Assembly (NCBI GenBank): GCA_024653945.1
Contig: JANLIT010000003.1
Location: 30,097-94,096 of the forward strand
Length of the DNA stretch: 64,000 bases
Source: Candidatus Campbellbacteria bacterium
Lineage (GTDB): Bacteria; Patescibacteriota; Minisyncoccia; Phycocordibacterales; EsbW-18
Direction: 5' to 3'
Made by a program: the position numbers and the translations under genes
Shown here: positions 3,449 through 57,835 of the stretch, piece after piece
Layout: the number at the start of each line of letters is the position of its first letter
Numbering within the stretch: the first letter of the stretch is position 1
Notes under the pieces: generated by a model
What the model saw: only the letters and a program-made list of their open reading frames with translations
What the model was told of the DNA's origin: nothing
Database searches by the model: none

Positions 3449-3450
3449 CC

Positions 3451-3480
3451 GCACCCGCTTGTAAGGGGGTGCGTTTTTGT
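3451..3480 (+). terminator. Rho-independent terminator after nuclease gene
   Basis: gcacccgcttgtaagggggtgc followed by gttttt. Confidence 0.6.
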
Positions 3481-3618
3481 ATTTCGGAAATAATTATTTC
3501 ACAATCTGGTTACAATCTAGTCAATAATTCCTTATGCATAAAGGGCGTATACTCTGAAACAGATGCACCTCACAACACGAATACAACCCGTATCGCACCA
3601 CAACCAAGGAGATGGGAG

Positions 3619-6318
3619 ATGCTCAATAACGCTGATGCACTCACTGTACACAGTGAGGACATCCGCGCCCTTCAGAGCTCCTCACCATCATTCTGGGTGT
3701 GGGCACGAGAGGCGTGGATCAAAGGATACCTTGACATCGTCGTCGAGGCCGTTATCACGACTGGCGTAGCCAATGATGTACCGGGGACGCTCGCATATCT
3801 TCAGGCGATTTACCTAGACCAAGTCGGTGGTTCAAAAAAAGTAGCACTCACCGATTTTGCAGGGAAAAATCCCTGGAACAAGCTCCACGCACGTCTGAGT
3901 ATCGCACTGGGCAAGACAAAACCCGCCACTGAACAAGATCTCACGCTTATGCACGGGATTATTGGTCACGCTGCGCTTCCACGACTATTTTCGAGCCGCT
4001 TATTCAGGGAACGAAATCATCGTGTCCTGCGCGAGGAAATGCGCCAAAGCTTGTTGTCGTTCTCTCCGAAGGAAACCGAGATTGGACAAATGACGTTCGG
4101 TTTCGGCGCTGATGTTCCTGCTACCTACGACGCTGTCGGACGCTTGGAAAGCGGTAAATCCGTTCTTGCACGAACAGCTCTGAAAAGAGCGATGACGTTC
4201 TGGAAGGAACACCGCTTGGCAGTCAATGAAGATAACCGCGCACAGTGGCGCGTGCTCGTTCCAAGACTTCGCGTAATCATGGAACCGATTTTCGGTCACT
4301 ATGTCTCGCGACTCGATCTGCATCCAGCCGCTAATCCCGAGATGACGTTCCTGACGCTCATGAGTTGGGCGAGTACGCTGTACTACTGGAAAGAGAATTA
4401 TCGTCGGGTTCTCTTCTCCGAGATAAATACCGTGCTCTCTACGCACGGTTTTCCCGGAGGAAGAGTTGACGCGGTTGAACTCCGCAGAATTGAAGGGGAA
4501 CGACTGACAAGAAAACAGGGTCTCATTCTCGAGTCCCTCAAGGTTCTCCGAAATCGTTCTGCGGGTGAACTCGTTGGTAGGTTCCAACGACAATTTCCCG
4601 GCGTTCTTGAAATTGCAATTCTCGACTGGAAGTTTGCTGTCGGAGACGCACTGGTTCGAGGAGAAATCATCAAACCAAGTGATATCGCGCGCGAACCGTT
4701 TCCAAAGCATCGCTTTCAAGTTGAGCGGTATCTCGCGCTGGCAATTCTTGACCACAGTCTGCAACATGGCATTCGGTATGACGACGAGGTATGGGCCCAG
4801 TACGGACATCGGCTTACCGCCGATGTTGTGTACTTTCTGCCGGGCACACTGCCAATCGTGCATACCGTTGCTCCGGATACTGCACTGCTCAAAGAAGTCT
4901 TCACGACCAGCACTGCCCAGCCTTGGGATAACGCGCGTGACCGCTCGACAATACGTCTGGCCAATAACGCAATCCTAGGACACCTTCTGGGTCTCATTGA
5001 GGGCGGACACAAAGGTAAACAGAACAAGAATGGCACGTCCGCAACTCTACAGGCAGAACTCTTCGACGGACGCACTGGATACGCATCCGTGACGGACATC
5101 ATTGAGAAGCACAAAAACGGGAAGACGGCCGTCGACGTTCACGGCATCATCTTCAAGACGGCGAACGGCAGTTACGAGATGCACTTTGATCGGTTGGTTG
5201 CTGCGGTCGAGCGAGATGATATCGGAACTCGGAATTTCTCCGCCGAATACGGAGGCAAGGTTTCGTGCATGATGCCAGGTCATGATGATTCTGGTCCATC
5301 CATGCACATCTACCTTGACGGAACCCCGCGATTCTTTTGCTTCGGCTGCGAAGCGCGCGGTATCATCGCTGTCAGCTCACTACCCGATCACTTCGAGATA
5401 TCACCCAGCACATTCCGTCGGCACCATATGCCGATGCAGACGGGGGAAAAGGAGACCAGTCTCGATATCTTGATTCCCGAGCGTTACCATCACCTGTTCA
5501 CCACTCTGCAAGAAAGTCTTGCGAGCGCTTTTCACGGAAGCTCTGCGGAACGGTACGTCGCATACAAGCGCAGAATCGACCCTGATCTTGCGTTCACCTA
5601 TGGCGCCGGTTTCGGTACATCGGCGTTACTCAACGACTTACTCGATGCGAAATGCTCGCTTGAGGAGCTTGCGACAAGTGGTATCATCCGCTTCTCTTCA
5701 GAGGTCAAGCCTGACAGCGTCGTCCCACGGCTCTTGAAACGGCACGGCATGCACATTGAGGAACTGACGCGGACCGTGAAGAAAAAGCCCGCATTGCCGT
5801 ACTGTCTTCTCTTTGACCGTGTTACGTTTCCTCTGACGTTTGAAGGTCGTCTCTCGAACTTCTACGCACGTAGCATATCGCCGAGAGGTCTTCCTCATGT
5901 GAAGCTTTCCACGCACCTCACGCAGGGTGGCTTCAACATGGTTGCTCTTGCTGACCCGAACTCCTCTGAAGTAATTATGACCGAAGGAGCCTTTGACGCG
6001 CTCACCCTCATTTCGATGGGGTTTACGAATGTCTTCTCGCTCATCGGCGTATTCAATGTCCCGTTGTTCGGGAGCATCATGCGTTCCGGCAAAGATCTGG
6101 CAACTGCCTTCGACCGCGATTCAAACGTCTACAAAACAGGGCAGACGAAAACCTTGAAGATTGAGAAAAAACTGCGGGAGTGGGGATTTCCGGGACGTGT
6201 TTGTGACTATACCGAAGCCTTCATTCAGAAGCTTCCTCCTGAGGAACGTCCGTCTGAAGGAGATGGTACAAAGTGGGATTTCAACGGATGGTGGTGCGAC
6301 CCTGCCCGCCGCCGTTAA
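3619..6318 (+). CDS. Large (~900 aa) fusion protein: N-terminal ~550-aa domain of unknown function + C-terminal DnaG-type primase core (CHC2 zinc finger + TOPRIM)
   Basis: CMMPGHDDSGPSMHIYLDGTPRFFCFGCEARG matches the DnaG CHC2 zinc-binding motif. VIMTEGAFDALTL (TOPRIM E) and AFDRDSNV (DxD) lie downstream at primase-like spacing. SD aaggagatgggagATG at 3619. The upstream 60 codons of the track ORF span the terminator. Confidence 0.6.
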   Translation: MLNNADALTVHSEDIRALQSSSPSFWVWAREAWIKGYLDIVVEAVITTGVANDVPGTLAYLQAIYLDQVGGSKKVALTDFAGKNPWNKLHARLSIALGKTKPATEQDLTLMHGIIGHAALPRLFSSRLFRERNHRVLREEMRQSLLSFSPKETEIGQMTFGFGADVPATYDAVGRLESGKSVLARTALKRAMTFWKEHRLAVNEDNRAQWRVLVPRLRVIMEPIFGHYVSRLDLHPAANPEMTFLTLMSWASTLYYWKENYRRVLFSEINTVLSTHGFPGGRVDAVELRRIEGERLTRKQGLILESLKVLRNRSAGELVGRFQRQFPGVLEIAILDWKFAVGDALVRGEIIKPSDIAREPFPKHRFQVERYLALAILDHSLQHGIRYDDEVWAQYGHRLTADVVYFLPGTLPIVHTVAPDTALLKEVFTTSTAQPWDNARDRSTIRLANNAILGHLLGLIEGGHKGKQNKNGTSATLQAELFDGRTGYASVTDIIEKHKNGKTAVDVHGIIFKTANGSYEMHFDRLVAAVERDDIGTRNFSAEYGGKVSCMMPGHDDSGPSMHIYLDGTPRFFCFGCEARGIIAVSSLPDHFEISPSTFRRHHMPMQTGEKETSLDILIPERYHHLFTTLQESLASAFHGSSAERYVAYKRRIDPDLAFTYGAGFGTSALLNDLLDAKCSLEELATSGIIRFSSEVKPDSVVPRLLKRHGMHIEELTRTVKKKPALPYCLLFDRVTFPLTFEGRLSNFYARSISPRGLPHVKLSTHLTQGGFNMVALADPNSSEVIMTEGAFDALTLISMGFTNVFSLIGVFNVPLFGSIMRSGKDLATAFDRDSNVYKTGQTKTLKIEKKLREWGFPGRVCDYTEAFIQKLPPEERPSEGDGTKWDFNGWWCDPARRR

Positions 6319-7408: not shown

Positions 7409-7503
7409 AGTGTGCAAAAAAAAGATATTGACATACCGTATTCTTCATTTATAATACAGATAGAAAGGTTCAACCGACACACAATCAATTGAGGAGACTG
7501 GCG

Positions 7504-7728
7504 ATGAACAGCATTCCGAAGGACAAGAGTTACCCAAGTGATTCCGTGCAGTGCGGTGGTTGTCGTGGACGTGGGTGCAAGGAGTGCGAACAGCGGGGAT
7601 GGTTCACGCCAGCATCTCATCCAAGGGGGCAACGTTGTTGGCTGGGAACGTGCGAGAAGCCCCTCCCCCCAAACCACATTGCAGTCTACTGTTCCAACCA
7701 GTGCGCCCAAGACGACGCCACGGACTGA
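7504..7728 (+). CDS. Small Cys-rich (zinc-ribbon-like) protein, GC-rich cassette
   Basis: 74 aa. CGGCRGRGCKECEQRG ... CWLGTC ... CSNQC. SD gaggag 7 nt upstream. Terminator follows. Confidence 0.35.
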   Translation: MNSIPKDKSYPSDSVQCGGCRGRGCKECEQRGWFTPASHPRGQRCWLGTCEKPLPPNHIAVYCSNQCAQDDATD

Positions 7729-7756
7729 TGTTCTCGTCGCTCGCTTTCCGCCCTAG

Positions 7757-7790
7757 GAGCCGCTGCTCTTCGGGCGGCTCTTTTGTTTTT
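7757..7790 (+). terminator. Rho-independent terminator
   Basis: gagccgctgctcttcgggcggctc followed by ttttgttttt. Confidence 0.7.
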
Positions 7791-7865
7791 GGAGTTGCAT
7801 TTTTGGTTACCATTTCGTACACTCATATGTGGACGCGCAATCCAGCGCGACGAAAGGAGCACGGT

Positions 7866-7982
7866 ATGAGTAAGCCCCGGCAGGGTCGCAACCGTCACTG
7901 CAAGCGCTTGAGCCGCATGTTCAACCTCAAGAACGGCTGGCCCATGCATCGGCGGGTGATCCTCCGGCTTCGGGCCGCGTAG
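7866..7982 (+). CDS. Very small basic Arg-rich peptide (38 aa), GC-rich cassette
   Basis: SD aaaggagcacggtATG. MSKPRQGRNRHCKRLSRMFNLKNGWPMHRRVILRLRAA. Own terminator downstream. Confidence 0.3.
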   Translation: MSKPRQGRNRHCKRLSRMFNLKNGWPMHRRVILRLRAA

Positions 7983-8011
7983 ACCCGAGCATCCTTCTCT
8001 CAACCACCACC

Positions 8012-8041
8012 GGGCGCCCCACAAGGGCGCCCTTTATCTTT
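8012..8041 (+). terminator. Rho-independent terminator
   Basis: gggcgccccacaagggcgccc followed by tttatcttt. Confidence 0.6.
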
Positions 8042-8103
8042 AACATACGGCTTGTGCACATTTGGGAAGAGGGGAAAAAACCTATATACTATGTATATGA
8101 ATC

Positions 8104-8219
8104 ACGTTAGAAATAACACAGTAGGCGTGACGCATTATCAGACCGCGGGAGCAAACATTGGTAATGGGGTGTGTTTTATTAAATAGCATTGGAAACGAAC
8201 GTTTCTGATTTCTAACGTG
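8104..8219 (+). promoter_or_regulatory. aspS leader with long-range 12-bp perfect inverted repeat (CACGTTAGAAAT ... ATTTCTAACGTG) whose 3' arm abuts the start codon, plus internal palindrome GAAACGaaCGTTTC
   Basis: Direct reading: 8104-8115 is the reverse complement of 8208-8219, and the ATG is at 8220. Confidence 0.4.
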
Positions 8220-9620
8220 ATGAAAAACCGTATTTATATAAAAGACCTTGAAAAACACATTGACACTAGCGTTACCATCGCTGGGTGGGTATCTGTACGG
8301 CGTGACCACGGAAAGCTTATTTTTATTGATGTTCGCGACGAAACAGGAAAAGTGCAGGTTGTCGTAACACCTAAAAATGCCGAGGCGCTTGCCGTAGCAA
8401 ACAACCTGCGCTCTGAGTGGGTTATTACCATCACTGGACTCATCAAAAAGCGTCCTGATAATTTGATTAATGCAGATGAATTAAACGGCATGCTTGAATG
8501 TGTGGCTGAAGAAATAACGGTGCTTGCCGAAGCAACAACTCCTCCATTTGATATTACTCAAGACACGATGGGTCTTAATGAAGAGGCACGCCTACAGTAC
8601 CGATACGTAGACCTGCGAAGCGCACGAATGCAGAAAAATATTCGTATTCGAAGCGAGTTTGTACAGAAGTGTCGTGAATATCTTTTTTCAAAAGGATTTG
8701 TTGAAATTGAAACTCCACTCCTCACACAATCAACACCGGAAGGTTCTCGCGACTTCCTTGTGCCATCACGACACGCACCTGGACAATTTTATGCACTGCC
8801 ACAATCACCTCAGCAATACAAACAACTCTTGATGACGTCTGGCTTTGAAAAATATTTTCAACTTGCTCGATGTGTGCGTGATGAAGACCTTCGTGCCGAC
8901 CGTGGATATGAACACACACAATTGGACCTTGAAATGGCCTTTGTCACACGTGACGAAGTTATGGACACTATTGAAGGCATGATTATTTTTGTGATGGAAG
9001 GTTTGGGTAAAACAATCAAACAAAAACCATTTCCACGAATGACGTATGCGGAAGCTATAAAAACATACGGCGCCGACAAATTTGATATGCGCACACCAGA
9101 AGATACAGAGAAGGGAATTCTTGCGTACGCATGGGTAACTGATTTTCCATTCTTTGAAAAAACAGATGACGGCAAATGGACGTTCTCTCACAACCCATTT
9201 TCAATGCCAAAGGAAGAGCATTTGGAGTGGCATATGAAAGGCGAGCACGTTGACGAAATAATCACACAGCAGTACGATCTCGTCTGTAACGGATTTGAAA
9301 CAGGAGGAGGAAGTATTCGTGCACATCGTCCAGAAATTCTTGAAGCAACCTACAAAATTATGGGGTATTCGGATACGGAAATAAAAGACAGCGTTGGTCA
9401 TATGCTTGAAGCATTTGCACACGGTGCGCCACCACATGGAGGTATTGGATTGGGAATTGAGCGAGGTGCAATGATTTTGACTGGTGAAGCATACCTGCGT
9501 GAAGTACAGGCATTTCCTATGACAGGAAAAGGAAAGACAGCGGTGATGCACGCACCAGGACCAATTGACCCGATTGTATTGCGAGACCTTGGATTGTCCA
9601 TTTTAAAGAAGAAAGAATAG
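8220..9620 (+). CDS. aspS: Aspartyl-tRNA synthetase (compact bacterial-type, lacking the large insertion domain)
   Basis: QSPQQYKQLLMTSGFEKYFQLARCVRDEDLRADRGYEHTQLDLEMAF closely matches bacterial AspRS motif 2. Has an N-terminal OB-fold. 467 aa. Confidence 0.85.
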   Translation: MKNRIYIKDLEKHIDTSVTIAGWVSVRRDHGKLIFIDVRDETGKVQVVVTPKNAEALAVANNLRSEWVITITGLIKKRPDNLINADELNGMLECVAEEITVLAEATTPPFDITQDTMGLNEEARLQYRYVDLRSARMQKNIRIRSEFVQKCREYLFSKGFVEIETPLLTQSTPEGSRDFLVPSRHAPGQFYALPQSPQQYKQLLMTSGFEKYFQLARCVRDEDLRADRGYEHTQLDLEMAFVTRDEVMDTIEGMIIFVMEGLGKTIKQKPFPRMTYAEAIKTYGADKFDMRTPEDTEKGILAYAWVTDFPFFEKTDDGKWTFSHNPFSMPKEEHLEWHMKGEHVDEIITQQYDLVCNGFETGGGSIRAHRPEILEATYKIMGYSDTEIKDSVGHMLEAFAHGAPPHGGIGLGIERGAMILTGEAYLREVQAFPMTGKGKTAVMHAPGPIDPIVLRDLGLSILKKKE

Positions 9621-22285: not shown

Positions 22286-23662
22286 ATGCTGACTTTCTAC
22301 AACACCCTCACGCGCGAGCAAGAGCCATTTGAAGCATTATCCAAACCACATGTCGGCATGTACAACTGTGGTCCGACGGTGTACGACCGCGTGCATATAG
22401 GCAATCTTCGCGCGTATGTGTTTGCAGATACACTTCGTCGTGTTCTCTCTGCAAATGGCTACGACGTACAGCAAGTCATGAACATCACCGACGTCGGTCA
22501 CCTCTCGTCAGATGCCGATTCTGGTGAAGACAAAATGACGAAAGGTCTTAAGCGCGAAGGTCTTCCAATGACGCTCGTTGGAATGCGCGAATTGGCAGAG
22601 AAATATACACGAGCATTTGAAGAAGATTTGGTGTCACTTAATATTTTGCACCCACATGAATTGCCGAGAGCAACCGACAACATTCCCGAACAAATTGACA
22701 TCATCAAGCGCCTCGAAGAAAAAGGATTTACCTATGTTATTGCGGATGACGGCGTTTATTTTGATACAGAAAAAGACCCCCACTATGGACGACTTGGTGG
22801 TCTTACTCCCCTTGGAGACGTTCGCACAGATGCTGAAAGTTCGCAGAAACACGGACCGCGAGATTTTGCATTGTGGAAATTCAATCAAGAGCTCGGTTGG
22901 GAGAGTCCGTGGGGTAAGGGGTTTCCAGGCTGGCACATTGAGTGTTCTGCAATGAGTATGAAGTACCTCGGCGAGACATTTGATATTCACACGGGCGGTA
23001 TTGATCACATTCCTGTCCACCACAATAACGAAATCGCGCAGTCGGAGAATGCGACGGGAAAACCCTTCGCACGTTTTTGGTTGCACAACGCATTTCTCAA
23101 TATTGATAATGAAAAAATTGCCAAGTCACTTGGCAATGCGATTGTGCTCTCGGCTCTTGTTGAAAAAGGTATTACTCCCCTTGCCTACCGCTACTGGTTG
23201 CTCACGGGACACTACAGAAGCGAAATGAATTTTACGATGGACGCACTTTTGGCCGGACAAAATGCGTATCTCAAACTTGTTGAACGTGTCCGAGAACTCG
23301 GTGAAGATGTTGGCACGGTGAACGACGAATACTACACACACTTTATGGATGCGGTGAATGATGATTTGGGAACTCCACAGGCAATTGCCGTTTTGTGGGA
23401 CTTATTTAAAAACGACAGTGTGTCCTCTGCCGACAAAAAAGCAACCATACTTGCTTTTGATACTGTGCTTGGTTTGCAGTTGGATGCAGTTGAATCCGTG
23501 TCTATTTCTGCCGATGTACAAAAACTTCTTGACGCGCGTGAACAAGCCCGCATCGCAAAAGATTGGAAGGCCTCAGATGACTTGCGCGCAGATATTGAAA
23601 AATTAGGATTTGATGTGAAAGATACGTCTGACGGTCAGAAAATTATTCCAAAGAATGTGTAG
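22286..23662 (+). CDS. cysS: Cysteinyl-tRNA synthetase
   Basis: MYNCGPTVYDRVHIGNLRAYV (HIGH), KIAKSLGN (KMSKS-like), WHIEC zinc site. Confidence 0.9.
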   Translation: MLTFYNTLTREQEPFEALSKPHVGMYNCGPTVYDRVHIGNLRAYVFADTLRRVLSANGYDVQQVMNITDVGHLSSDADSGEDKMTKGLKREGLPMTLVGMRELAEKYTRAFEEDLVSLNILHPHELPRATDNIPEQIDIIKRLEEKGFTYVIADDGVYFDTEKDPHYGRLGGLTPLGDVRTDAESSQKHGPRDFALWKFNQELGWESPWGKGFPGWHIECSAMSMKYLGETFDIHTGGIDHIPVHHNNEIAQSENATGKPFARFWLHNAFLNIDNEKIAKSLGNAIVLSALVEKGITPLAYRYWLLTGHYRSEMNFTMDALLAGQNAYLKLVERVRELGEDVGTVNDEYYTHFMDAVNDDLGTPQAIAVLWDLFKNDSVSSADKKATILAFDTVLGLQLDAVESVSISADVQKLLDAREQARIAKDWKASDDLRADIEKLGFDVKDTSDGQKIIPKNV

Positions 23663-23960
23663 GTAAAAGAAAATAAATGAAAAAGGAGAAGGGTTCCCGT
23701 AGGTTACCACTCCTCCCCACCTGGCGCCGTTAGGGCGCAAAGGTGTTGTTGGCGGCGCACCGTGACAGTTCCCTAGTGGAACCGCCCGGTGCCGCCGCGC
23801 CGGCGATCAGGCCGAAGCGATGCTCAGATAGTCGTGCGAATAAAGCGACGAGTACATCAGGCGCATGTCTTCTCCTCGTTCTTGCTTCGGGTCCATTCCC
23901 TCAGCAAGTCCAAGAGTATTATACTCCCCCATCTGGAGTTGTCAAGCCCTCCAAAACCCT

Positions 23961-24013
23961 TTGTTTTTCAAAAGAAAACCGCCTAATGAAAGCTCGGCTT
24001 TCTTAGGCGGTGT
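23961..24013. terminator. Hairpin terminator (U-tract on minus side) downstream of GC-rich gene 24037..24525; near-identical in sequence to the terminator at 27216..27268
   Basis: aaaACCGCCTAAtgaaagctcggctttcTTAGGCGGTg, with minus-strand run ttttcttttg. Confidence 0.65.
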
Positions 24014-24036
24014 TGAGGCGCACCGCCTCCTTCTGT

Positions 24037-24525
24037 CTACCCTGTCGGAGTTACGGTAAGTTTCGCCGCGACCTCCGTGGGTTTGTTGATGAGGTGGCTC
24101 ATGTTGGAGCCGGAGTAGAAGGGGCGGTGTTGATTCCTCCGCATCCACCTGGAGAGCTCGTAACACCGTTCCACCATGTCCTTGATGACCATCTCCCGAG
24201 AAGGGATGGTTGGCGGTACCCAGTTCTCCATCTTCTCCTTCCACCAGCGAACAAATGCGTTGTAGTTCGAATGCGCCAGGACGGCTTCAACATGCCGTTG
24301 CTGGTAAACCTTGACGATTTCCACGGCGGCCTGGCGAAAGATGGTGACGATCTCGTCGACACTCAGTATCTTCCACTCCTGCCCACCCCAGATGGGAACG
24401 TTGTGAAAGAAGCCGTTGAAGCGATCGATGACAGGGCGCAGCTGAACCAGTCCGTCGAAATCCACTTCTTCCACTTGGACGACGACGGGTCCCTGCTCGA
24501 TTTTTTTGTATCCGACATGCAACAT
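24037..24525 (-). CDS. Hypothetical 162-aa protein, GC-rich cassette
   Basis: SD gggaggtgtgccATG. Terminator downstream on the same strand. The opposite-strand ORF 24010..24585 has a composition typical of antisense. Confidence 0.45.
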   Translation of the reverse strand: MLHVGYKKIEQGPVVVQVEEVDFDGLVQLRPVIDRFNGFFHNVPIWGGQEWKILSVDEIVTIFRQAAVEIVKVYQQRHVEAVLAHSNYNAFVRWWKEKMENWVPPTIPSREMVIKDMVERCYELSRWMRRNQHRPFYSGSNMSHLINKPTEVAAKLTVTPTG

Positions 24526-24551
24526 GGCACACCTCCCTTGCTGGTAAGTAA

Positions 24552-24594
24552 TGCGTTGTTTCAGAAAATTTCTTCAACGCCCTGAAACAACGCA
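24552..24594. promoter_or_regulatory. 13-bp perfect inverted repeat TGCGTTGTTTCAG-n17-CTGAAACAACGCA upstream of cassette gene 24037..24525
   Basis: Direct reading. No U-tract, so it is not a terminator; possibly an operator or a 5' leader structure. Confidence 0.35.
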
Positions 24595-24755
24595 TCACGA
24601 GCATCTGAGGCACGTTATACTACATATATATCATAGTTGTCAATCCCCATTCTACCGCCTACTTTCTACCAGCTACAAGCTACTTCTTTGTCCCCAGAAT
24701 ACGCACTCGTACTCCCCTTTTTTGTTCGAATGGGTCATTTCTCTCGTGTGCTACT

Positions 24756-26180
24756 ATGCACCTACAGATACAAAACATGCCAACACAAACACCCACAAAA
24801 CCAGTTCGCACTCCTCCGCAAGATGTTGAAACAGAGAAAGCACTTCTTGGTTCTATTCTTTTGCGACCTGAAGCAATTCACGAAGTGGTTGATATTCTTT
24901 CCGCCGAATCATTCTATGCACACAAACACGGCCTCATTTTTTCCGCCATGTTTGATATCTACAAAAAGGGCGAGCCTGTTGACCTCGTCTCACTTTCGTC
25001 TCGCCTCAAAGAATTGAAAGAAATGGATTCCGTCGGCGGTATGAGTTACCTCACCGGACTGGTAGATACCGTGCCGTCGTCAATGAACGCAAAACACTAC
25101 GCGGAAATTGTGCAGAAAAAACACACGATGCGTCAGCTCATTGAAGCCGCACACCACATTACCGAACTCGGCTTTGCTGAAGAAGAAGAACTTGAAGAAC
25201 TTCTTGATAAAGCGGAAAAGAGAATTTACGAAATCACCTCCGCACCGAGCAACAAAAAATTCGTCCCAATAGGCGACGTGCTCGGTGAAGCGTTTGAACG
25301 TTTGGATAAATTGCAAAAGTCTTCCGGCACACTGCGCGGTGTACCAACGGGCTTCCCCGAGTTGGACCATAAAATCGCCGGACTCCAACAATCAGACCTC
25401 ATCATTCTCGCCGCACGACCTTCAATGGGAAAGACATCGCTCGCACTTGATATCGCGCGCCACACCGCCATTCGTCACGGCACATCCGTCGGCATCTTCT
25501 CTCTTGAAATGAGTGCCCAGCAACTCGTCGACCGCATGCTCGCCGCCGAAGCACAGGTGGACGCGTGGCGTTTGCGCACAGGAAAACTCTCCACGGATGA
25601 CGAATTTGAACGCATCAGTGAGGCCACCAACAAACTCTCCCAAGCAAAAATATACATTGACGACCAGCCAGGCAACAACATCCTCAAAATGCGCTCTGTC
25701 GCACGCCGACTCAAGAGTGAAAAAGGTCTTGACCTCATCATTGTGGACTACCTCCAGCTCATGGTTCCCGCAGGCAAAAACCGCCAGCAAGACAACATGG
25801 TGCAACAAGTCACCGAAATATCCCGCTCACTGAAGCAACTCGCCCGCGAATTGGACGTGCCTGTGCTTGCCCTTTCACAACTTTCACGCGCCATTGAACA
25901 ACGCCGTGGCCGACCACAACTCTCCGACTTGCGTGATTCAGGTTCCATTGAGCAGGACGCCGACTTGGTGATGTTTATTCACAGCGAAGACCGCTACAAA
26001 GAAGCCAGTGAGCGCTCCAATATTATGGAACTCATTATCTCCAAGCACCGCAACGGTCCGACGGGCATGCTCGAGCTCTACTTTGATGACAAGAAAGCCA
26101 CCTTCCGCTCACTTGAACGCCACGGAGTAGACCAATTTGACGCTTCCGCACAGAGCGGTGAAGCAAGCGCGGAGTTTTAA
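24756..26180 (+). CDS. dnaB: Replicative DNA helicase DnaB
   Basis: N-terminal ETEKALLGSILLRPEAIHEVVD, Walker A ARPSMGKTSLALDIA, RecA-like C-terminus. The alternative start at 24777 (MPTQ) is equally plausible. Confidence 0.9.
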   Translation: MHLQIQNMPTQTPTKPVRTPPQDVETEKALLGSILLRPEAIHEVVDILSAESFYAHKHGLIFSAMFDIYKKGEPVDLVSLSSRLKELKEMDSVGGMSYLTGLVDTVPSSMNAKHYAEIVQKKHTMRQLIEAAHHITELGFAEEEELEELLDKAEKRIYEITSAPSNKKFVPIGDVLGEAFERLDKLQKSSGTLRGVPTGFPELDHKIAGLQQSDLIILAARPSMGKTSLALDIARHTAIRHGTSVGIFSLEMSAQQLVDRMLAAEAQVDAWRLRTGKLSTDDEFERISEATNKLSQAKIYIDDQPGNNILKMRSVARRLKSEKGLDLIIVDYLQLMVPAGKNRQQDNMVQQVTEISRSLKQLARELDVPVLALSQLSRAIEQRRGRPQLSDLRDSGSIEQDADLVMFIHSEDRYKEASERSNIMELIISKHRNGPTGMLELYFDDKKATFRSLERHGVDQFDASAQSGEASAEF

Positions 26181-26203
26181 TTTATAAAAAATAGTTTTAT
26201 CAA

Positions 26204-26869
26204 ATGGCAACTAGTTCAACTTTTTTTATCTTAGTGAATGGCTTACAAGATTATAGTGCGGCCATACAAGCTGTGTCTACGGTCATTTTAGCATTGATAA
26301 CATTAGGTTACGCTTTTTCTACCAAAAGAATGGCCAGTTTAATGGAAAAACAAATGTCTCCGAGTATTTTTATTGAAAACATTATGGCCGGCTCACCATT
26401 TATTGAAGACTGGTTTAGAGAAAGACCCGACGAACAACTTGAAAGCACCTTTTTTGAGTTAAAGGTTATTCTCGATGTGCGCAATGAAGGAAATGGTTCA
26501 GGAAGTATCTACAAACCAACTTTGACCTTAAGTTCAACTGCACACGATTTTCCTTTCTCTACAAAACTTCGCCCAATTACCATATCTCATGAAACCTATA
26601 ATCGCAGAACACAGGGGTCAATGGAAACGAGCGAGACGAGAAGCATAGACCACGGCAGTTCAGTTTTTTTGAGTGGTGGGGATTCAAGAAGGCTGGAACT
26701 CGAATATCGTTTTATGATTGAAACTAAAGATGAGTGTGATTTTATAAAAAGAGTAAAAAAGAATCCAGAAATAGTAACTTATTCTTTGGTTACTCATGAT
26801 AACCTAAATAAAGGATACAAAATTCTAGTTACTGATGTTAAAGGAGTGCGTGAGTGTAGTTTAATCTAA
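26204..26869 (+). CDS. Hypothetical membrane-anchored protein (AT-rich segment)
   Basis: 221 aa, with one N-terminal TM. Markedly AT-rich relative to the window. Confidence 0.4.
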   Translation: MATSSTFFILVNGLQDYSAAIQAVSTVILALITLGYAFSTKRMASLMEKQMSPSIFIENIMAGSPFIEDWFRERPDEQLESTFFELKVILDVRNEGNGSGSIYKPTLTLSSTAHDFPFSTKLRPITISHETYNRRTQGSMETSETRSIDHGSSVFLSGGDSRRLELEYRFMIETKDECDFIKRVKKNPEIVTYSLVTHDNLNKGYKILVTDVKGVRECSLI

Positions 26870-26909
26870 AATTTAACAATGAACGCAATATAAAAACTAA
26901 CTAAGACGT

Positions 26910-27215
26910 ATGGAAAAATATCAAAAAGAACTTGATGTGTGGTTTAAAGAAAAAGGATGGCCATATTGGGAACCACTCGCCATTGTTGCTCGCCTCTTTG
27001 AAGAAGGTGGAGAATTTGCACGTCTCGTCAATCATGTCTATGGTCCAAAAAAGAAAAAGTTGGATGAACAAAAACAAGATATGGAAGAGGAACTCGGCGA
27101 TATTATTTATACACTCATTTGCTTCGCCAATTCACACGACATCAACTTAGACACCGCAATTCGTAAAAGTTTTGATAAGGTAACTGAGAGAGATAAAGAG
27201 AGGTATAAAAATTAG
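26910..27215 (+). CDS. MazG-like nucleotide pyrophosphohydrolase (small all-alpha NTP-PPase)
   Basis: EEGGEFARLVNHVYG ... EEELGDIIYTLICFAN has the EExxE/ELGD pattern of the MazG/HisE-like fold. 101 aa. Confidence 0.6.
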   Translation: MEKYQKELDVWFKEKGWPYWEPLAIVARLFEEGGEFARLVNHVYGPKKKKLDEQKQDMEEELGDIIYTLICFANSHDINLDTAIRKSFDKVTERDKERYKN

Positions 27216-27268
27216 AAACAAGAAAACCGCCTGACGAAGCGCGGCTTTCCGTGCTTTGTCAGGCGGCG
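27216..27268. terminator. Bidirectional hairpin terminator, sequence-related to 23961..24013
   Basis: aaaACCGCCTGACgaagcgcggctttccgtgctttGTCAGGCGGcg, with minus-side run tttcttgtttc. Confidence 0.6.
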
Positions 27269-27278
27269 TGTCGAGAGA

Positions 27279-27707
27279 TTACAGCTCCTTCTTTCCAGCT
27301 TGAGCGAACGGGTAGAGTCCCCTCTCGAGACTCGGGAACTCTTTCACCATACCCTCCACAAAAACATCGAGATTCTCATAGACACTCAGGACCTCATCGA
27401 CATAAAGAGGGTCCATGAGAGTTTCATCGGTTGAAAACACCTGACAACCGAGAGAGCAAGGGGCCTGCGAGCGAACTCCCACAACCATCACGTACTCCCC
27501 ACGCCGATTTCTGTAAGCACCGAGCGACCAGTGGCAGTTGGAGTTTGTGAATTCCTTCCGCACACCGTCCGGTTTCCAGTTGGTCCGATCACACTCCAAG
27601 TGCACCAGTCCGATGATCATCGAAATCAGTTGCAGAATCCTTTTTCGCATCAGGTCGATGTTGGCAGATCCGTGAAGCAACAGTTCGGCGATTCCTATGT
27701 CGGACAT
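27279..27707 (-). CDS. Hypothetical 142-aa protein, GC-rich cassette
   Basis: SD aggaggacagggATG. GC-rich. Terminator downstream. Confidence 0.45.
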   Translation of the reverse strand: MSDIGIAELLLHGSANIDLMRKRILQLISMIIGLVHLECDRTNWKPDGVRKEFTNSNCHWSLGAYRNRRGEYVMVVGVRSQAPCSLGCQVFSTDETLMDPLYVDEVLSVYENLDVFVEGMVKEFPSLERGLYPFAQAGKKEL

Positions 27708-27861
27708 CCCTGTCCTCCTGTCTCCAGTTTCCCTCTCGGGATTGCTCTCTCGAGCGTTTGCCTATGTACGCAATGTACACAGTTCTAGGGAAATTATATA
27801 TCTATATTACACTTGTGTCAAGTTACCCCAAATAGCCCTAAAAATCTGCTAAAATGGACAT

Positions 27862-28470
27862 ATGAACGCAATCCAAAAACTAGCTGAATACTTTCAAAAG
27901 TTCCCTGGGATTGGGCCACGACAAGCAAAACGTTTCGTGCATTTTTTGCTGACGCAAGACAAGGCGTTTGTGAAAAGTTTGTCCGAGCGCATTGAAGAAC
28001 TCCAGGCATCTATTTCACGCTGTAGCCAGTGCCACCGTTTTTTTGACGCCGATGGTTACGCCGAAGTGTGCGATATCTGCTCCTCACCAAACCGTGATAC
28101 GCACTTGCTCATGGTCGTAGAAAAAGATGCTGACTTAGACGCCATTGAAAAAACACACGCATACAACGGCCACTACTTTGTCATCGGAGGCACCGTTCCC
28201 CTTCTTGAAAGCACTCCCTCAAACCTCAAGACAGAAGAGCTCACCAAGTATGTGCAGAAAAATATTAAAAACCTCAAAGAAATTATTATTGCCACAGGAG
28301 CACATCCTGAAGGTGAGATGACCGCCGATCACGTGAAGTCACTTCTCTCCCCTATCACCACTGAAAACGGCATTACCATTTCTATGCTTGGACGAGGACT
28401 TTCTACAGGAACAGAACTTGAATACTCCGACGCCGACACCATTAAAAGCGCATTTACAAATAGAAGATAG
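27862..28470 (+). CDS. recR: Recombination protein RecR
   Basis: MNAIQKLAEYFQKFPGIGPRQAKRFVHFLL (HhH), C4 zinc finger CSQCHRF..CDIC, Toprim. Confidence 0.9.
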   Translation: MNAIQKLAEYFQKFPGIGPRQAKRFVHFLLTQDKAFVKSLSERIEELQASISRCSQCHRFFDADGYAEVCDICSSPNRDTHLLMVVEKDADLDAIEKTHAYNGHYFVIGGTVPLLESTPSNLKTEELTKYVQKNIKNLKEIIIATGAHPEGEMTADHVKSLLSPITTENGITISMLGRGLSTGTELEYSDADTIKSAFTNRR

Positions 28471-29001: not shown

Positions 29002-29310
29002 TTAAACTTTCTTGATTGTTACCTTTGAAAATGGCTGGCGGTGTCCGCGCTTTTTGTAGTATCGGCTTTTTGCTTTGTATTTAATAACCACAATCTTTCG
29101 TCCACGTCCTTGTGTATCAACAGTTGCCTCAATTTTGGCACCTGCGATGTATGGAGCTCCGAGTGTTGTAGTAGAACCATCGTCCGTGAGCACAACCTTA
29201 TCAAATACAACCTTCCCTCCTGCGTCTACAGGAAGTTTTTCGGTTACTATTGACTTGTCGTCAGAAACGAGGTATTGCTTTCCGCCTGTTTCAATTACTG
29301 CAAATGTCAT
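29002..29310 (-). CDS. rplU: 50S ribosomal protein bL21
   Basis: MTFAVIETGGKQYLVSDDKSI...KIVVIKYKAKSRYYKKRGHRQPFSKVTI. Confidence 0.9.
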   Translation of the reverse strand: MTFAVIETGGKQYLVSDDKSIVTEKLPVDAGGKVVFDKVVLTDDGSTTTLGAPYIAGAKIEATVDTQGRGRKIVVIKYKAKSRYYKKRGHRQPFSKVTIKKV

Positions 29311-29495
29311 AGATGTGTAGTATACATGCTCTGGGGGCGATTACAAGTATGTAAAACAACATTTTGTAATCCAAACGGTTTAATATATATAAAATTTTTT
29401 AACCATATCAAACCATTGACTTTTTTTGTTTTTGCTGTACCATCGCACACAGACACAGATGTTCCTATCAACCCGTCTTCAAAAAGGAGAACGTC

Positions 29496-29993
29496 ATGAC
29501 GGTAGTCGGCGTGATTGTGTACTGTTTCATCGGGTTGGTCCTCGCAGTCCCCTACTGTCTTTTGGCAGGATGGAGCCCTGAGAGTCTCCCCGCCGTAGCA
29601 ACCTTCGGGCCAGCATTTCTGCTCATCTGGCTCCTGTTCGGAGTAACCTCAGGAGTCGTGGTGCCAAACAGCAATCGAAAGTGGTTGCCTGTTCGATTTC
29701 ATTGGCGTGGTTCCCGAAGTAAGTCAACCGCCCCCAGAAGCGTGTTCTGGATATGGACCGCCTACGGCCTCCTTCCCATCTTAGTGCACTGGAGTTCGAT
29801 GCTTCTCGGAAAAATGGGCTACAGCGAGATTGCTTTACTGCTCAATGCCAATCGCTACATGAGCATCGTCTACGTTTTTCTTGGTGGTCTCGTGGTAGCT
29901 TGTCTGCTCATAGTTGCCTTCGGGGTTTGGGAGGGGTTGAAAAACGCCCGGACGTGGGTGCTACACCATGTGCCGTGGCGAGTTAGTCACTAG
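29496..29993 (+). CDS. Hypothetical membrane protein, GC-rich cassette
   Basis: SD aaaaggagaacgtcATG. 165 aa with 4 hydrophobic helices. GC-rich. Confidence 0.45.
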   Translation: MTVVGVIVYCFIGLVLAVPYCLLAGWSPESLPAVATFGPAFLLIWLLFGVTSGVVVPNSNRKWLPVRFHWRGSRSKSTAPRSVFWIWTAYGLLPILVHWSSMLLGKMGYSEIALLLNANRYMSIVYVFLGGLVVACLLIVAFGVWEGLKNARTWVLHHVPWRVSH

Positions 29994-30079
29994 GAACCGG
30001 TTCTCGTCGAGTCCTTCACGAAAGGAGTTTTACACAAACTCTATCGTGTGGGACTCTTTTCGTATCCCCGTGTTCGTTG

Positions 30080-30095
30080 CAAGTATCGATACTTG
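30080..30095. promoter_or_regulatory. 16-bp perfect palindrome CAAGTATCGATACTTG between convergent cassette genes
   Basis: Direct reading. Confidence 0.3.
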
Positions 30096-30136
30096 TGCCA
30101 GATGAGCAATGCCACTATTTTATCTCAAGTCAGACC

Positions 30137-30171
30137 AACAAAAAAACATCCCCAGAACACTGTTCTGGGGG
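30137..30171 (-). terminator. Rho-independent terminator for 30195..30602
   Basis: CCCCAGAACA/TGTTCTGGGG stem, with a minus-strand run of seven T then G. Confidence 0.6.
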
Positions 30172-30194
30172 TACTACCGGGGTTCGTCTTGTGT

Positions 30195-30602
30195 CTATTT
30201 ACAAACGGACAACAGCCTGAATGCGCTGGGATTCACCGTAACGGGAGGAGGGGGTGGTTCCTCCGCGGCGTTGATGAAGACCCTGTTCTCATCGGCGAAG
30301 AACCGTAGAAGTCTCTTCCAGTCCGATGGGGGTCCAGTCACAAGGAAGAGCTTCCAGAGAACATTCCTGTTGCCCACGTCGCTGAAGACGATGTCCCCGA
30401 GATACCGGTGCACGCCATCTTCGCACTCGTACCAGAAGTATGCTCCGTTCAACCCCTCCGGCTTCACCGAGCCGACAAGCAGGTTCTTGCCGATGCGCAT
30501 CAGCGAGGCCATCTTAATGGCGGTCTCACTCACATCAACACGAACGTGTTCGCCACTGACCAGTCGGACGGTCTTCACTTGGGCTTTCCTACCTTTTTTC
30601 AT
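30195..30602 (-). CDS. Hypothetical 135-aa protein, GC-rich cassette
   Basis: SD aggaaggaacagaccATG. PPPPP tract. Terminator downstream. Confidence 0.4.
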   Translation of the reverse strand: MKKGRKAQVKTVRLVSGEHVRVDVSETAIKMASLMRIGKNLLVGSVKPEGLNGAYFWYECEDGVHRYLGDIVFSDVGNRNVLWKLFLVTGPPSDWKRLLRFFADENRVFINAAEEPPPPPVTVNPSAFRLLSVCK

Positions 30603-30690
30603 GGTCTGTTCCTTCCTGAAAAGGCTGACGGGACTCGTCTGCCTGTTTGTTTTCTATTTTTGATTATGCACTTTTCTATTTAAAAGTCAA

Positions 30691-31331: not shown

Positions 31332-31432
31332 ACGATTTCACAAAATCGCGTCGCGCAATTGTTGATTCTGCAGAATCATGTCACGTACTGTCCATTAAAA
31401 CGTGACCTAAAGCGCGACGTATATTGTGATGG
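31332..31432 (-). repeat. Start-codon-abutting repeat element, copy B (long form incl. GATTCTGCAGAATC palindrome)
   Basis: The reverse complement reads cgtcgcgctttaggtcacgttttaatggacagtacgtgacatgattctgcagaatcaacaattgcgcgacgcgattttgtgaaatcgtATG. It aligns with copy A at 58-104 and 147-169. Confidence 0.75.
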
Positions 31433-39399: not shown

Positions 39400-39495
39400 T
39401 TGATTTCACAAAATCACGTCGCGCAAGTGATTCTGCGGAATTATGTCGCGTACCGTCCACTAAGACGCGACCTTGAGGCGCGACGTATTCTTCAT
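39400..39495 (-). repeat. Start-codon-abutting repeat element, copy C (long form)
   Basis: The reverse complement reads tacgtcgcgcctcaaggtcgcgtcttagtggacggtacgcgacataattccgcagaatcacttgcgcgacgtgattttgtgaaatcaaATG. The second hairpin is TGATTT/AAATCA, a compensatory change relative to CGATTT/AAATCG. Confidence 0.75.
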
Positions 39496-39645
39496 TACCT
39501 GCTTTGTCCCACACCATGGACAGTGCCATTCTTTTTTGGTAGTTGGTGCATCACCAACTGACCACCACTTATTGCACACTCCACATCGAAAATGTGAAAG
39601 ACGCTCTACCGAACGAAGTCCTTGTTGTTGTGTTTTTTTCTTCAT
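39460..39645 (-). CDS. Small zinc-ribbon protein (CxxC...CxxC), 3' end overlapped by repeat copy C
   Basis: MKKKTQQQGLRSVERLSHFRCGVCNKWWSVGDAPTTKKEWHCPWCGTKQV... Confidence 0.35.
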   Translation of the reverse strand: MKKKTQQQGLRSVERLSHFRCGVCNKWWSVGDAPTTKKEWHCPWCGTKQVMKNTSRLKVAS

Positions 39646-39694
39646 ATATGCAGTAATGCCCCCTGTTTTTTGTAGGGGGGGGTACATGGGCAAG

Positions 39695-39760
39695 TATAGC
39701 AGAAAAGGGATAAGTAGGAAGTAGTAGGTAGAATGTAGTAAGTAGTAGGTAGAAAGCAAA
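39695..39760. repeat. GTAG-rich degenerate tandem repeat tract (AGTAGTAGGTAGAA x2 plus variants)
   Basis: Direct reading: aagtaggaagtagtaggtagaatgtagtaagtagtaggtagaaagc. Confidence 0.5.
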
Positions 39761-39764
39761 ATGT

Positions 39765-39810
39765 TGGGAAAAGAAAAAGGCGCAGACTAGGATTTCTCCC
39801 AGAGTGCGCC
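39765..39810 (-). terminator. Rho-independent terminator for 39833..40360
   Basis: GGCGCAgactaggatttctcccagagTGCGCC, with minus run tttttcttttccc. Confidence 0.55.
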
Positions 39811-39832
39811 TCACTAACACCAACCGGCGACC

Positions 39833-40360
39833 TTACTTCGTGGCAGCCTTGCGCCCCCGCTTGGAGGAGTCGATGACAGTCTTGCCCCGCACGACGCTCA
39901 CTCGCGTGAGCCGTTTCTGGGTCTCGCCGTCCTTCAGGATTGCCTTCGCCTCGGCTGAGGTGAAGAGCAAGAGGCTCGTGCTGTCGGGAGGGATGATCTT
40001 GACGGCAGGAGCGTCCCCCACGAAGCTGCCGGTGGCCACCTTGACCTCGGTCGACTTCGACTTCTCGGGCTGCTTCTCGTTGTCCTCGATAGCAACAACC
40101 TGAAGGATGGCGGCGATCATGGCCTTGTCACCCTTGATGAGGTTGTAGTCGACGAGGTTCTTGTCCTCGCTCTTCGGCTTCGCGTTGAAGTTGCGGAGAA
40201 CCGTCTCCGCATCATGGAAGCGTGCTTTGGCTTCCGTGAAGTTCGCCGTGGGGAACTTCACCTCGTACTCGGCGAGTCGGCCCTCCAGCACGTTCAGGCG
40301 AGAGACGAGGATGTCGCGGACCGAAATCTGAATCGACTGCTTCTGAAGCTTGGTGTTCAT
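39833..40360 (-). CDS. Hypothetical 175-aa protein, GC-rich cassette
   Basis: SD gggagaaagaaccATG. GC-rich. Own terminator. Confidence 0.45.
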   Translation of the reverse strand: MNTKLQKQSIQISVRDILVSRLNVLEGRLAEYEVKFPTANFTEAKARFHDAETVLRNFNAKPKSEDKNLVDYNLIKGDKAMIAAILQVVAIEDNEKQPEKSKSTEVKVATGSFVGDAPAVKIIPPDSTSLLLFTSAEAKAILKDGETQKRLTRVSVVRGKTVIDSSKRGRKAATK

Positions 40361-40654
40361 GGTTCTTTCTCCCTTGCGACCTTGGTCGCGGTTGGTTGAT
40401 TTGTTCTACTGCAGAATTTTACGCACCGTTCATAAAATTCTTATAAAGTGCCCAAAATTCCGAAGTAGAACCTCTTTTAAAGATCGTACGTGTACAGTAT
40501 ATCATATACATTGTATTTGTCAACCCCATTAGAGATTTCCCTTTAAACAAGCTAAAAAACCTAATAATATAAAGGTACTTTTGACACTGGCAAATGTAAC
40601 AAATCTATACAAACTCTAACGGGGTCAGGCACCCCTCCTTATACCCTTTTAACA

Positions 40655-40959: not shown

Positions 40960-41064
40960 CAGAATCTCCTTTGCGTTTGACGTAAGAGAAATAGTTTGGT
41001 ATATTCCACACAGTTTTGTACTGTGATTGCCTACTTGTGGGTGCCACATCAGAGGAGGTTTGCG

Positions 41065-41418
41065 ATGGCAAAGAAGCGACGTTTTGCAACGCAGGACCAG
41101 CGTACGAGGGGGGAGATGTTGAATGACCTCTCCCGACAAGGGGAAGAGCTTCGAGATCTTACCAAGGAGAGGGACGAACTTCTCGGCGAGAGACACGTCC
41201 TTCGCCAGGCGAGAGCTGACCTCTTCTTGAACTTTGGGACCGCCAAGCTGGATGTCGCCAGTCTCTCGGAAGAGAAGGCGCACCTTCTGGCGAGAGTCGA
41301 GAACCTCCTAGGGAACGCCGAGGAGATGAGGAAGAGGCACGACGGAGAAAACGAGCGCCATCAGGCCTTCGTCGACGGACTTTCTCTGGCACTCAGAGTC
41401 GTCACCGGCAAGGTGTGA
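41065..41418 (+). CDS. Hypothetical 117-aa charged coiled-coil protein, GC-rich cassette
   Basis: SD agaggaggtttgcgATG. GC-rich. Terminator downstream. Confidence 0.4.
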   Translation: MAKKRRFATQDQRTRGEMLNDLSRQGEELRDLTKERDELLGERHVLRQARADLFLNFGTAKLDVASLSEEKAHLLARVENLLGNAEEMRKRHDGENERHQAFVDGLSLALRVVTGKV

Positions 41419-41454
41419 GTCCTCGTTCGGATGAACAACCTCTCGGGAGTAAGA

Positions 41455-41502
41455 GCGGGACGACCATTCAATTGGTCCTCCCGCTTTGTTTTTTATTTTT
41501 TC
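41455..41502. terminator. Rho-independent terminator (serves cassette gene; T-run overlaps uvrB stop)
   Basis: GCGGGACGACCattcaattGGTCCTCCCGC, then tttgttttttattttttc. Confidence 0.65.
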
Positions 41503-57770: not shown

Positions 57771-57835
57771 TACTCTCAGTGTACCAAGCAGGATCTAAAA
57801 ATACCACGGATAGCTGTATGACCTCATATAATAGA

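Follow-up and report, generated by a model that had tools for sequence, protein, structure and literature searches.

Introduction

Intrinsic (Rho-independent) terminators are normally too short and too fast-evolving to be traced as families. The attC sites of integrons are imperfect palindromes that stand at the 3' ends of cassettes and are common to unrelated open reading frames (ORFs); their core sites R'' (RYYYAAC) and R' (GTTRRRY) contain an invariant AAC/GTT triplet. Here we compare with these systems two hairpins, T1 and T2, which lie behind two minus-strand ORFs of 162 and 142 aa (ORF162 and ORF142) in a metagenome-assembled genome of Candidatus Campbellbacteria. The stretch of DNA analysed, hereafter the window, is the examined 64 kb of a 228,401-bp contig and has a GC content of ∼45%. 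The first-pass annotation of the window had taken the hairpins for a shared 3' module of cassettes mobilised by a common mechanism, in analogy to attC or to the terminator of a moron. The inserted cassettes, the shared terminator module and the likeness to morons were borne out by our analysis; the hallmarks of attC and a mechanism specific for the hairpin were not. The reading that we favour, and hold to be probable rather than secure, is that moron-like cassettes are re-assorted by ordinary homologous or illegitimate recombination, and that the hairpin is an ordinary terminator and not a dedicated mobility site.

Morons are recognised by transcription signals of their own, a deviating base composition, insertion between conserved genes, location at hot spots and occurrence in varied contexts (PMC2920897). 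The units in the window agree with phage morons in carrying their own promoter and factor-independent terminator and in a base composition unlike that of their neighbours: the GC content at third codon positions (GC3) is 0.74 for ORF162 and 0.62 for ORF142, against 0.28–0.45 for native genes. The two ORFs are GC-rich and have no similarity to each other, as had been stated. The agreement extends to insertion between adjacent conserved genes, with different modules at each hot spot and one gene at different places. The units differ from phage morons in that they reside in the cellular chromosome of a candidate phyla radiation (CPR) bacterium, between the housekeeping genes cysS, dnaB and recR and not in a prophage, in that relatives of ORF142 and ORF162 were not found in 2.9 million viral contigs, and in that the promoter/untranslated region (UTR) and terminator modules are themselves re-assorted among ORFs. 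The units work like morons but are not phage morons; every functional property applies to them and the phage location does not.

Predicted terminators of the minus-strand ORFs

T1 and T2 were found where the first-pass annotation had placed them, and the sequences quoted for them are present in the window. T1 consists of two arms (23978–23986 and 24003–24011) that enclose an inner GAAAGC/GCUUUC stem, with one unpaired base at the internal junction. T2 is one continuous 18-bp stem (27227–27244 with 27249–27266) around a 4-nt loop (27245–27248), fully paired with two G-U pairs and without extrahelical bases. The folds were computed at −23 kcal/mol for T1 and, for T2, at −31 kcal/mol on the minus strand and −36 kcal/mol on the plus strand; the z-scores were −3.4 to −6.2, and none of the shuffled sequences folded equally well. 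A T-run follows the hairpin 3' on the minus strand alone (GGCGGTTTTCTTTTG for T1, GGCGGTTTTCTTGTTTC for T2), the end of the stem and the tail reading GGCGG-UUUUCUUUUG and GGCGG-UUUUCUUGUUUC, respectively; the U-tracts are the complements of 23977–23965 and 27226–27216. The plus-strand sequences after the hairpins (GTGTTGAGG and CGTGTCGAG) contain no T-run. The stop codons of ORF162 (24037–24039) and ORF142 (27279–27281) lie 25 and 12 nt from the respective hairpin.

Both elements therefore combine, on the strand of the upstream ORF, a GC-rich stem-loop of strong predicted stability, a U-tract directly 3' of it and a nearby stop codon. Since the U-tract is present on the minus strand only, T1 and T2 are, as judged from the sequence, canonical predicted intrinsic terminators of the minus-strand ORFs and not of the plus-strand genes cysS and mazG. 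What sets them apart from other Rho-independent terminators is the unusual length of the stems (15–18 bp) and the presence of a homologous copy behind unrelated genes. The claim that both hairpins also terminate a plus-strand core gene had to be dropped: apart from the missing T-run, the cysS stop (23660–23662) is 316 nt away from T1, with another transcription unit in between. The mazG stop (27213–27215) is followed by T2 after 11 nt. The inner mini-hairpin GCGGCTTTC, proposed as a common structure, is not equivalent in the two either, as this sequence forms the loop and 3' arm of the inner stem in T1 and the arm end and loop of the continuous stem in T2.

With attC the hairpins share the position at the cassette 3' end and an outer stem (GCCTAA/TTAGGC in T1, GCCTGAC/GTCAGGC in T2) that resembles RYYYAAC/GTTRRRY at 6 of 7 positions. 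The triplet is altered in both, however, with AAT/CTT in T1 (GCCTAAT...CTTAGGC) and GAC/GTC in T2 (GCCTGAC...GTCAGGC). The two-box layout R''-L''/L'-R' with its extrahelical bases was not found in the hairpins, and the U-tract belongs to the T1/T2 element itself.

A third copy of the stem arm is located directly past the ORF162 stop (24015–24029), reading CACCGCCT on the plus strand (24021–24028) and AGGCGGUG in the minus-strand RNA. This copy could pair with the 5' arm of T1 (24003–24011) in place of the 3' arm, so that an alternative structure, sensitive to translation, is possible. In the computed fold of minimum energy the T1 terminator is retained, and the third arm copy forms a small extra hairpin.

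A small family of homologous terminators

For comparison, 80 syntenic loci were fetched via DnaB from related Paceibacteria genomes (DnaB identity 93–55%; loci are designated by L numbers), and 272 terminators with a hairpin and T-tail were collected from the window and 85 related loci (∼1.06 Mb). T1 and T2 could resemble each other by convergence, the T2-type hairpin being a vertically inherited resident of the junction between dnaB and recR (dnaB|recR) and nothing being shared between the cassettes. Native terminators, for example those at 57827–57865 and 61821–61850, also have CCGCC/GGCGG stems between A- and T-runs, and hairpins of the type CCGCCTRA...TYAGGCGGTTTTCTT occur in unrelated phage contigs. 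The exact 13-mer common to T1 and T2 (AAGAAAACCGCCT) is weak proof by itself and not significant alone; AAAACCGCCT with at most one mismatch gave 8 matches (4.9 expected) and GCGGCTTTC gave 17 (12.9 expected). In an ungapped comparison anchored on the T-run, T1 and T2 agree at an unremarkable 19 of 30 positions, no better than several unrelated terminators.

Against convergence stand the comparisons that include the homologues from other genomes. The 3' arm and tail of T1 match the terminator in L002 at 25 of 30 ungapped positions (background 13.0±2.5, z ∼4.8), the highest of 271, and blastn independently pairs 23962–24000 with L002:919–879. Gapped local scores were 60 for T2–L002 (best unrelated terminator 27), 54 for L002–L008, 45 for T1–L002, 40 for T1–T2 (best unrelated terminator 29 for the T1 comparisons) and 29 for T1–L008. 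The whole family thus spans 29–60, on a background with a mean of ∼14 and a standard deviation of ∼4.5 in which the best unrelated terminators overall reached 27–31. T1 and T2 are also mutual best matches within the genome. A covariance model of the five family copies, run against 0.96 Mb, scored the members at 51–78 bits and everything else at 27 bits or less. A leave-out model, built from the three homologues outside the window and containing no window sequence, gave 63.8 bits for T2, placed T1 second in the window with 27.6 bits (E 6.5e-7) and scored all remaining window terminators at 18.5 bits or less. Moreover, the T2-type terminator was not found at the dnaB|recR slot of L009 and is internal to that of L008, behind a different ORF, so that it is no fixed flank. 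We regard convergence as unlikely on these grounds.

The resemblance noted between T1 and T2 is thus real. The two are homologous copies of one small, discrete family with five members: T1, T2, L002:860–905, L090:2–41 and L008:4387–4335. Across the five copies the stem is preserved, through substitutions on one side or on both. T1, which lacks the tip of the T2-type stem, is a more distant and shortened member. Two copies are present in the 64 kb and three more in ∼0.9 Mb of relatives and a metagenome scan; that scan, with a specific T2 pattern, returned 17 matches of which L090 alone belongs to the family. Scans of viral collections for the hairpin yielded just unrelated high-GC phage terminators or, with the specific T2 pattern, none. 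At this copy number the hairpin is not the generic, high-copy terminator of native genes that would have spoken against the original proposal. An uptake-sequence role, in the manner of the inverted repeats of DNA uptake sequences or uptake signal sequences (DUS/USS) that serve as terminators, was considered and rejected, as the motif AAAACCGCCT is not over-represented.

Insertion sites flanking dnaB

The ancestral gene order across the relatives is a corA-like gene, cysS, dnaB, recR and a conserved 102-aa gene on the opposite strand (29002–29310); the synteny of the flanking genes cysS, dnaB, mazG and recR is conserved in the 80 relatives. At dnaB|recR the median gap in the relatives is 4 bp (n=68) versus 1,682 bp in the window, and at cysS|dnaB it is 153 bp (n=56) versus 1,094 bp. 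That both ORFs are inserted cassettes is confirmed by the near-empty state of these junctions, which measure only 4–150 bp in most of the 80 relatives.

The content of the junctions changes from lineage to lineage. ORF142 is found at dnaB|recR in the window and in L002. L007 (DnaB 93% identical) has one unrelated GC3-rich ORF per junction, the one at dnaB|recR being ORF-K. The dnaB|recR junction of L008 is shared by mazG, an ORF of 64 aa and a membrane protein, GC3-rich and at least 200 aa long, that carries the T2-type terminator. L009 has mazG and a two-gene operon, in which an ORF162 homologue (47% identity) comes first, together with ORF-K; the homologue there occupies the slot held by ORF142 in the window. 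The junction is empty in L010, L011 and L012, and L011 has another unrelated cassette in cysS|dnaB. The GC3-rich cassettes at the two dnaB junctions are all antisense to the core genes, a rule that fails for other cassettes of the window.

Homology of the window with L008 and L009 ends at the mazG stop, and hairpin T2 is the outermost element of the variable segment. The recR promoter motif TCTGCTAAAAT precedes recR in the window, L008, L009 and L010 (variant CTCTGATAAAAT in L007). As to whether cassette boundaries coincide with the hairpin, T2 is at the edge of the variable segment, and the family copy of L008 is internal to the slot, behind the unrelated membrane protein.

The motif TCTGCTAAAAT is located just 6–8 nt before the recR ATG (window 27838–27864; also L008, L009 and L010), which suggests that recR of this clade is transcribed from an extended −10 promoter into an mRNA with no leader or almost none.

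Modules shared between cassettes

Each unit is made up of a consensus sigma-70 promoter, a short structured 5'UTR that includes a Shine-Dalgarno site, an ORF rich in GC3 and a hairpin of high GC content with U-tract (Table 1). ORF162 is preceded by TTGACA-18-TATAAC (24643–24614) and by a UTR with a 12-bp hairpin (GCGTTGTTTCAG, 24553–24564, with CTGAAACAACGC, 24582–24593) and a Shine-Dalgarno site. ORF142 has a perfect TTGACA-17-TATAAT (27821–27793), and its 5'UTR and ORF start are 80% identical to L002:373–468. In the 64 kb, three 12/12 matches to the sigma-70 consensus and two of the four 11/12 matches stand ahead of GC-rich units, and about 0.02 perfect promoters would be expected by chance (our arithmetic). 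The codon-position analysis gave some 10–12 small ORFs in the window with GC3 values of 0.54–0.85. About 10 self-contained units are present, and those that were read have their own promoter and terminator.

The terminator family is found behind at least three unrelated ORFs, namely the ORF142 family (window and L002), the membrane protein of L008 and ORF162 (with T1), in agreement with the idea of a common terminator attached to different ORFs. The hairpin is not a general marker of the 3' ends of GC-rich cassettes. The other GC3-rich units of the window (about nine) have terminators without resemblance to T1 or T2, the cassettes of L007, L009, L011, L001 and L104 end in unrelated terminators, and behind the ORF162 homologues of L009, L001 and L104 stands a different terminator or no separate one. 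At the 5' side, the promoter/UTR module of ORF162 has a homologue in L007, where it belongs to the cassette of the same junction. The homology extends to the Shine-Dalgarno site, beyond which the ORFs are unrelated; the UTR hairpin shows compensatory changes between the window and L007. Since both a promoter/UTR and a terminator are shared by unrelated ORFs, the promoter/UTR, ORF and terminator behave as separable modules.

The conserved ends could have a more active part. The chromosomes of the Campbellbacteria/Paceibacteria clade might be colonised by 'chromosomal morons', minimal units of consensus promoter and strong terminator around GC3-rich orphan genes from a shared higher-GC pool, with the promoter/UTR and the T1/T2 terminator with its TTTTnAAAAC tail serving as portable homology patches, or as recognition signal for a trans-acting mechanism, and ORFs being swapped at a few slots beside essential genes. 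It would constitute a cassette-exchange system distinct from integrons; we consider it distinctly unlikely. A transposon or miniature inverted-repeat transposable element (MITE) does not fit the cassettes, which show no terminal inverted repeats or target-site duplication and are single-copy in the window.

Table 1. Positions of the cassette units, their parts and the adjoining recR promoter region in the window.
Feature	Position	Strand	Assignment and basis
T1	23965..24013	-	Predicted intrinsic terminator of ORF162 unit; fold, bits in leave-out covariance model, likeness to L002
T2	27214..27268	-	Predicted intrinsic terminator of ORF142 unit; fold, bits in leave-out covariance model, copies in L002, L090 and L008
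ORF162 (NUW02_02035)	24037..24525	-	GC3-rich accessory gene; GC 0.55, GC3 0.74
ORF142 (NUW02_02055)	27279..27707	-	GC3-rich accessory gene; GC3 0.62
Promoter and 5'UTR module of ORF162 unit	24526..24643	-	11/12 promoter match; homologue in L007
Promoter and 5'UTR of ORF142 unit	27708..27821	-	12/12 promoter
Unit B2	23670..23945	-	Perfect promoter, 19-codon ORF, structured RNA, own terminator
Native recR promoter region	27822..27861	+	TCTGCTAAAAT conserved before recR; right-hand boundary of insertion
Further GC3-rich units	7428-8040; 29416-30690; 39770-40523; 40975-41500; 940-1262		Own promoter and terminator

Among the genes of the further units are tandem mini-genes of 74 and 38 aa (7504–7982), a 135-aa minus-strand ORF (30195–30602), a 175-aa ORF with a GC3 of 0.85 (39833–40360) and a 117-aa ORF (41065–41418).

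Unit B2 is situated directly downstream of T1 and starts 20 nt past its U-tract. Its TTGACA-16-TATAAT promoter (23945–23918) is followed by an ORF of 19 codons (MRLMYSSLYSHDYLSIASA, 23866–23807), which has a good Shine-Dalgarno site, by ∼150 nt of GC-rich structured RNA and by a hairpin with U-tract of its own at ∼23717–23670. The predicted fold (243 nt) has an energy of −109 kcal/mol and a z-score of −5.3. An Rfam scan of the window returned two tRNAs only, with no match at T1 or B2. Candidate identities for B2 are a small RNA gene, a leader-peptide device and a cassette that has decayed.

A putative recombination scar at recR

In L002 a 42-nt direct repeat (L002:223–264 and 910–951; 93% identical) stands on either side of the 645-bp ORF142-type cassette; it corresponds to the 5' end of recR, positions −4 to +38. 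The inner copy has a GTG start, is preceded by the TCTGCTAAAAT motif and runs into the full recR. The outer copy has an ATG start and follows a gene X; it is retained in L090 (58–96), 3 nt from the stop of X. Between gene X and the terminator tail both L002 and L090 thus hold a relic of recR (codons 1–12; MHQITKLAELF and a stop). At the junction of relic and cassette, the terminator tail TTTTTAAAACAG overlaps recR codons 10–13 (CTGTTTCAAAA, reverse complement TTTTGAAACAG). The tail in L008 (TTTTTAAAAACA) is nearly the same without a relic, and T1 has the variant TTTTGAAAAACA. The repeat was considered as a target-site duplication and rejected, because the upstream contexts of the copies differ and the junction falls at microhomology with the terminator tail.

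In homology-facilitated illegitimate recombination (HFIR), homology serves at one end of the incoming DNA and the other end is joined illegitimately (PMC3240628). Accordingly worded for this locus, donor DNA with terminator, ORF, promoter and recR would have recombined homologously within recR, and its other end would have been joined illegitimately at the ∼10-nt microhomology. The simplest reading of the repeat is then a relic of the recipient recR end plus the donor copy, and HFIR is the simplest route to it, to judge from this one event. The foreign segment beside a conserved anchor, the microhomology junction and the relic of the recipient gene (L002, L090) are as described for HFIR in natural transformation. 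The case differs in that it comes from one scar in related metagenomic contigs and no such scar is present in the window, where a search for direct repeats flanking the cassettes gave none of note. Natural competence, moreover, has been demonstrated in Saccharibacteria, a CPR lineage (PMC10633639, PMC10187176), and is not known from Campbellbacteria. In Vibrio cholerae, where effector/immunity modules are displaced at conserved slots, foreign segments are likewise placed beside a conserved anchor gene (PMC5361080).

Gene families and origin of the cassettes

ORF162 belongs to a family of 71 representative clusters with conserved motifs, and homologues at other loci were found in L001 (53% identity) and L104 as well as in L009. 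It has no family in Pfam, PHROG or PADLOC, and its AlphaFold2 model is poor, with a predicted local distance difference test (pLDDT) score of 45.6. For ORF142 a single homologue is known, that of L002, which is 45% identical; for RecR and DnaB fragments from that lineage the identity is 74–78%. The model of ORF142, of moderate confidence, gave no structural neighbour. Overall, the cassette ORFs had no usable match in Pfam, PHROGs or PADLOC, and no defence-system or phage family was among the results.

Relatives of the cassettes in genomes of 52% GC are richer still (GC3 0.78–0.92), and an ORF162 relative in a CPR genome of 32% GC has a host-like GC3 of 0.20. It is therefore most likely that the GC excess in the window reflects a recent arrival, be it from a relative with higher GC or from a mobile pool. 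A GC-rich 3.6-kb island at 2762–6318 (GC3 0.55–0.67) contains two ORFs, of 228 and 959 aa; the longer one resembles phage DNA primases in its C-terminal part (phrog_47, E 2.9e-16), with a weak match to Toprim_2. The island is probably what remains of a mobile element and may be a source of the GC-rich gene pool, in which case such a pool touches this genome.

The primase, together with the GC3 richness of all units relative to the host and a moron-like architecture that is typical of phage accessory genes (PMC2920897), would also fit units that are remnants of one broken-up integrated element (prophage, plasmid or satellite), from whose gene set the terminator was taken. We think this quite improbable: over 40 kb the units occur one by one between core genes, presence and absence in the relatives follow an independent pattern at each junction, neither the two ORFs nor the T2 pattern had a viral match, and the composition of the ORF162 relative at 32% GC is that of its host.

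Discussion

If moron-like cassettes are re-assorted by ordinary recombination, as we favour, units would be gained, lost and re-assorted at lineage-specific hot spots, and this would happen module by module (promoter/UTR, ORF, terminator). Related genomes or a higher-GC mobile gene pool would most likely supply the DNA. A conserved flank or module would anchor one of the crossovers; the second would be either homologous or located at a microhomology. The hairpin would stop and insulate transcription; its presence on different ORFs would be a by-product of descent and recombination and not a site that is read by a recombinase.

Several points weigh against this reading. The membership of T1 rests on ∼45 nt and exceeds generic terminators by ∼9 bits in the leave-out comparison. 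Four of the five family members are at one locus, the dnaB|recR junction, and the re-assortment among ORFs therefore rests on L008 and T1. A run of N (L007:5284–5383) masks the 3' end of the cysS|dnaB cassette of L007, where an orthologue of T1 would sit. Termination at T1 and T2 is a prediction. HFIR is one interpretation of a single event, and a site-specific event with a long core is also conceivable from the sequence. A recombinase may, finally, be encoded elsewhere, as the analysis covered 64 kb of the 228-kb contig and the Pfam scan 29 of its ORFs.

An attC-like or otherwise hairpin-specific site, at which a trans-acting recombinase (integron integrase or HUH/RAYT-type) moves ORF and hairpin between slots, would account for one hairpin family on three unrelated ORFs, for the hairpin at the edge of the variable segment, for ORF162 relatives at three different loci and for the direct repeat around the L002 cassette, but is very improbable given the altered triplet, the fully paired stem of T2 with a terminator-style U-tract directly after it, cassettes that have their own 11–12/12 promoters and are not arrayed, the unrelated terminators of most cassettes here and in the relatives, the concentration of the family at one locus, an L002 repeat that is accounted for by the relic and the donor copy, and a Pfam scan of 29 window ORFs in which no integrase or transposase was found, no IntI or attI having been seen.

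The element itself is not new; what is new is the setting, i.e. moron-like units that swap modules, at hot spots next to essential genes of a CPR genome, and no relevant earlier account from CPR genomes came up in a literature search. In the pattern seen at this locus, single orphan genes arrive expression-ready, equipped with near-perfect promoter and strong terminator, at a few junctions beside essential genes, turn over fast between close relatives and exchange their regulatory ends. A hairpin common to unrelated genes, as the case illustrates, need not be a mobility site. If the pattern is general, the accessory genes of uncultivated ultrasmall bacteria, possibly those for host interaction or phage defence, could be found by a simple rule, and a testable link to the natural competence of these bacteria would be at hand.

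Additional sequence elements

An element of ∼125 nt is present in the window (8085–8216) and in L008 (∼5291–5412), with 12-nt inverted repeats (CACGTTAGAAAT...ATTTCTAACGTG) and a conserved core, GGAAACGAAnGTTTC. It abuts a start codon, in the window that of the gene at 8220–9620; in L008 it separates the recR promoter motif from the recR ATG, a place at which the other genomes have nothing. The Rfam matches were all below threshold (S15 leader, 17.7 bits against a gathering score of 39.5 bits). Possible interpretations are a mobile 5' leader and a MITE-like element.

The palindromic sequence TGATTCYGCAGAATCA occurs in intergenic DNA at 86–103, 892–906, 919–933, 31362–31379 and 39427–39441; two tandem copies are just upstream of the GC-rich ORF 996–1262. 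With at most two mismatches it was found 7 times in the window (0.16 expected), and none of the 105 fetched loci contains it. It has the look of an operator that would serve a genome-specific regulator.

CTAC-rich tracts (ttctacc..ctac..ctact) are present at 24650–24690 (plus strand) and 39700–39770 (minus strand), ∼20–110 nt upstream of core genes. They lie between a core gene (dnaB and the small gene 39460–39687, respectively) and the inserted cassette, and are possibly a native promoter or UTR feature.

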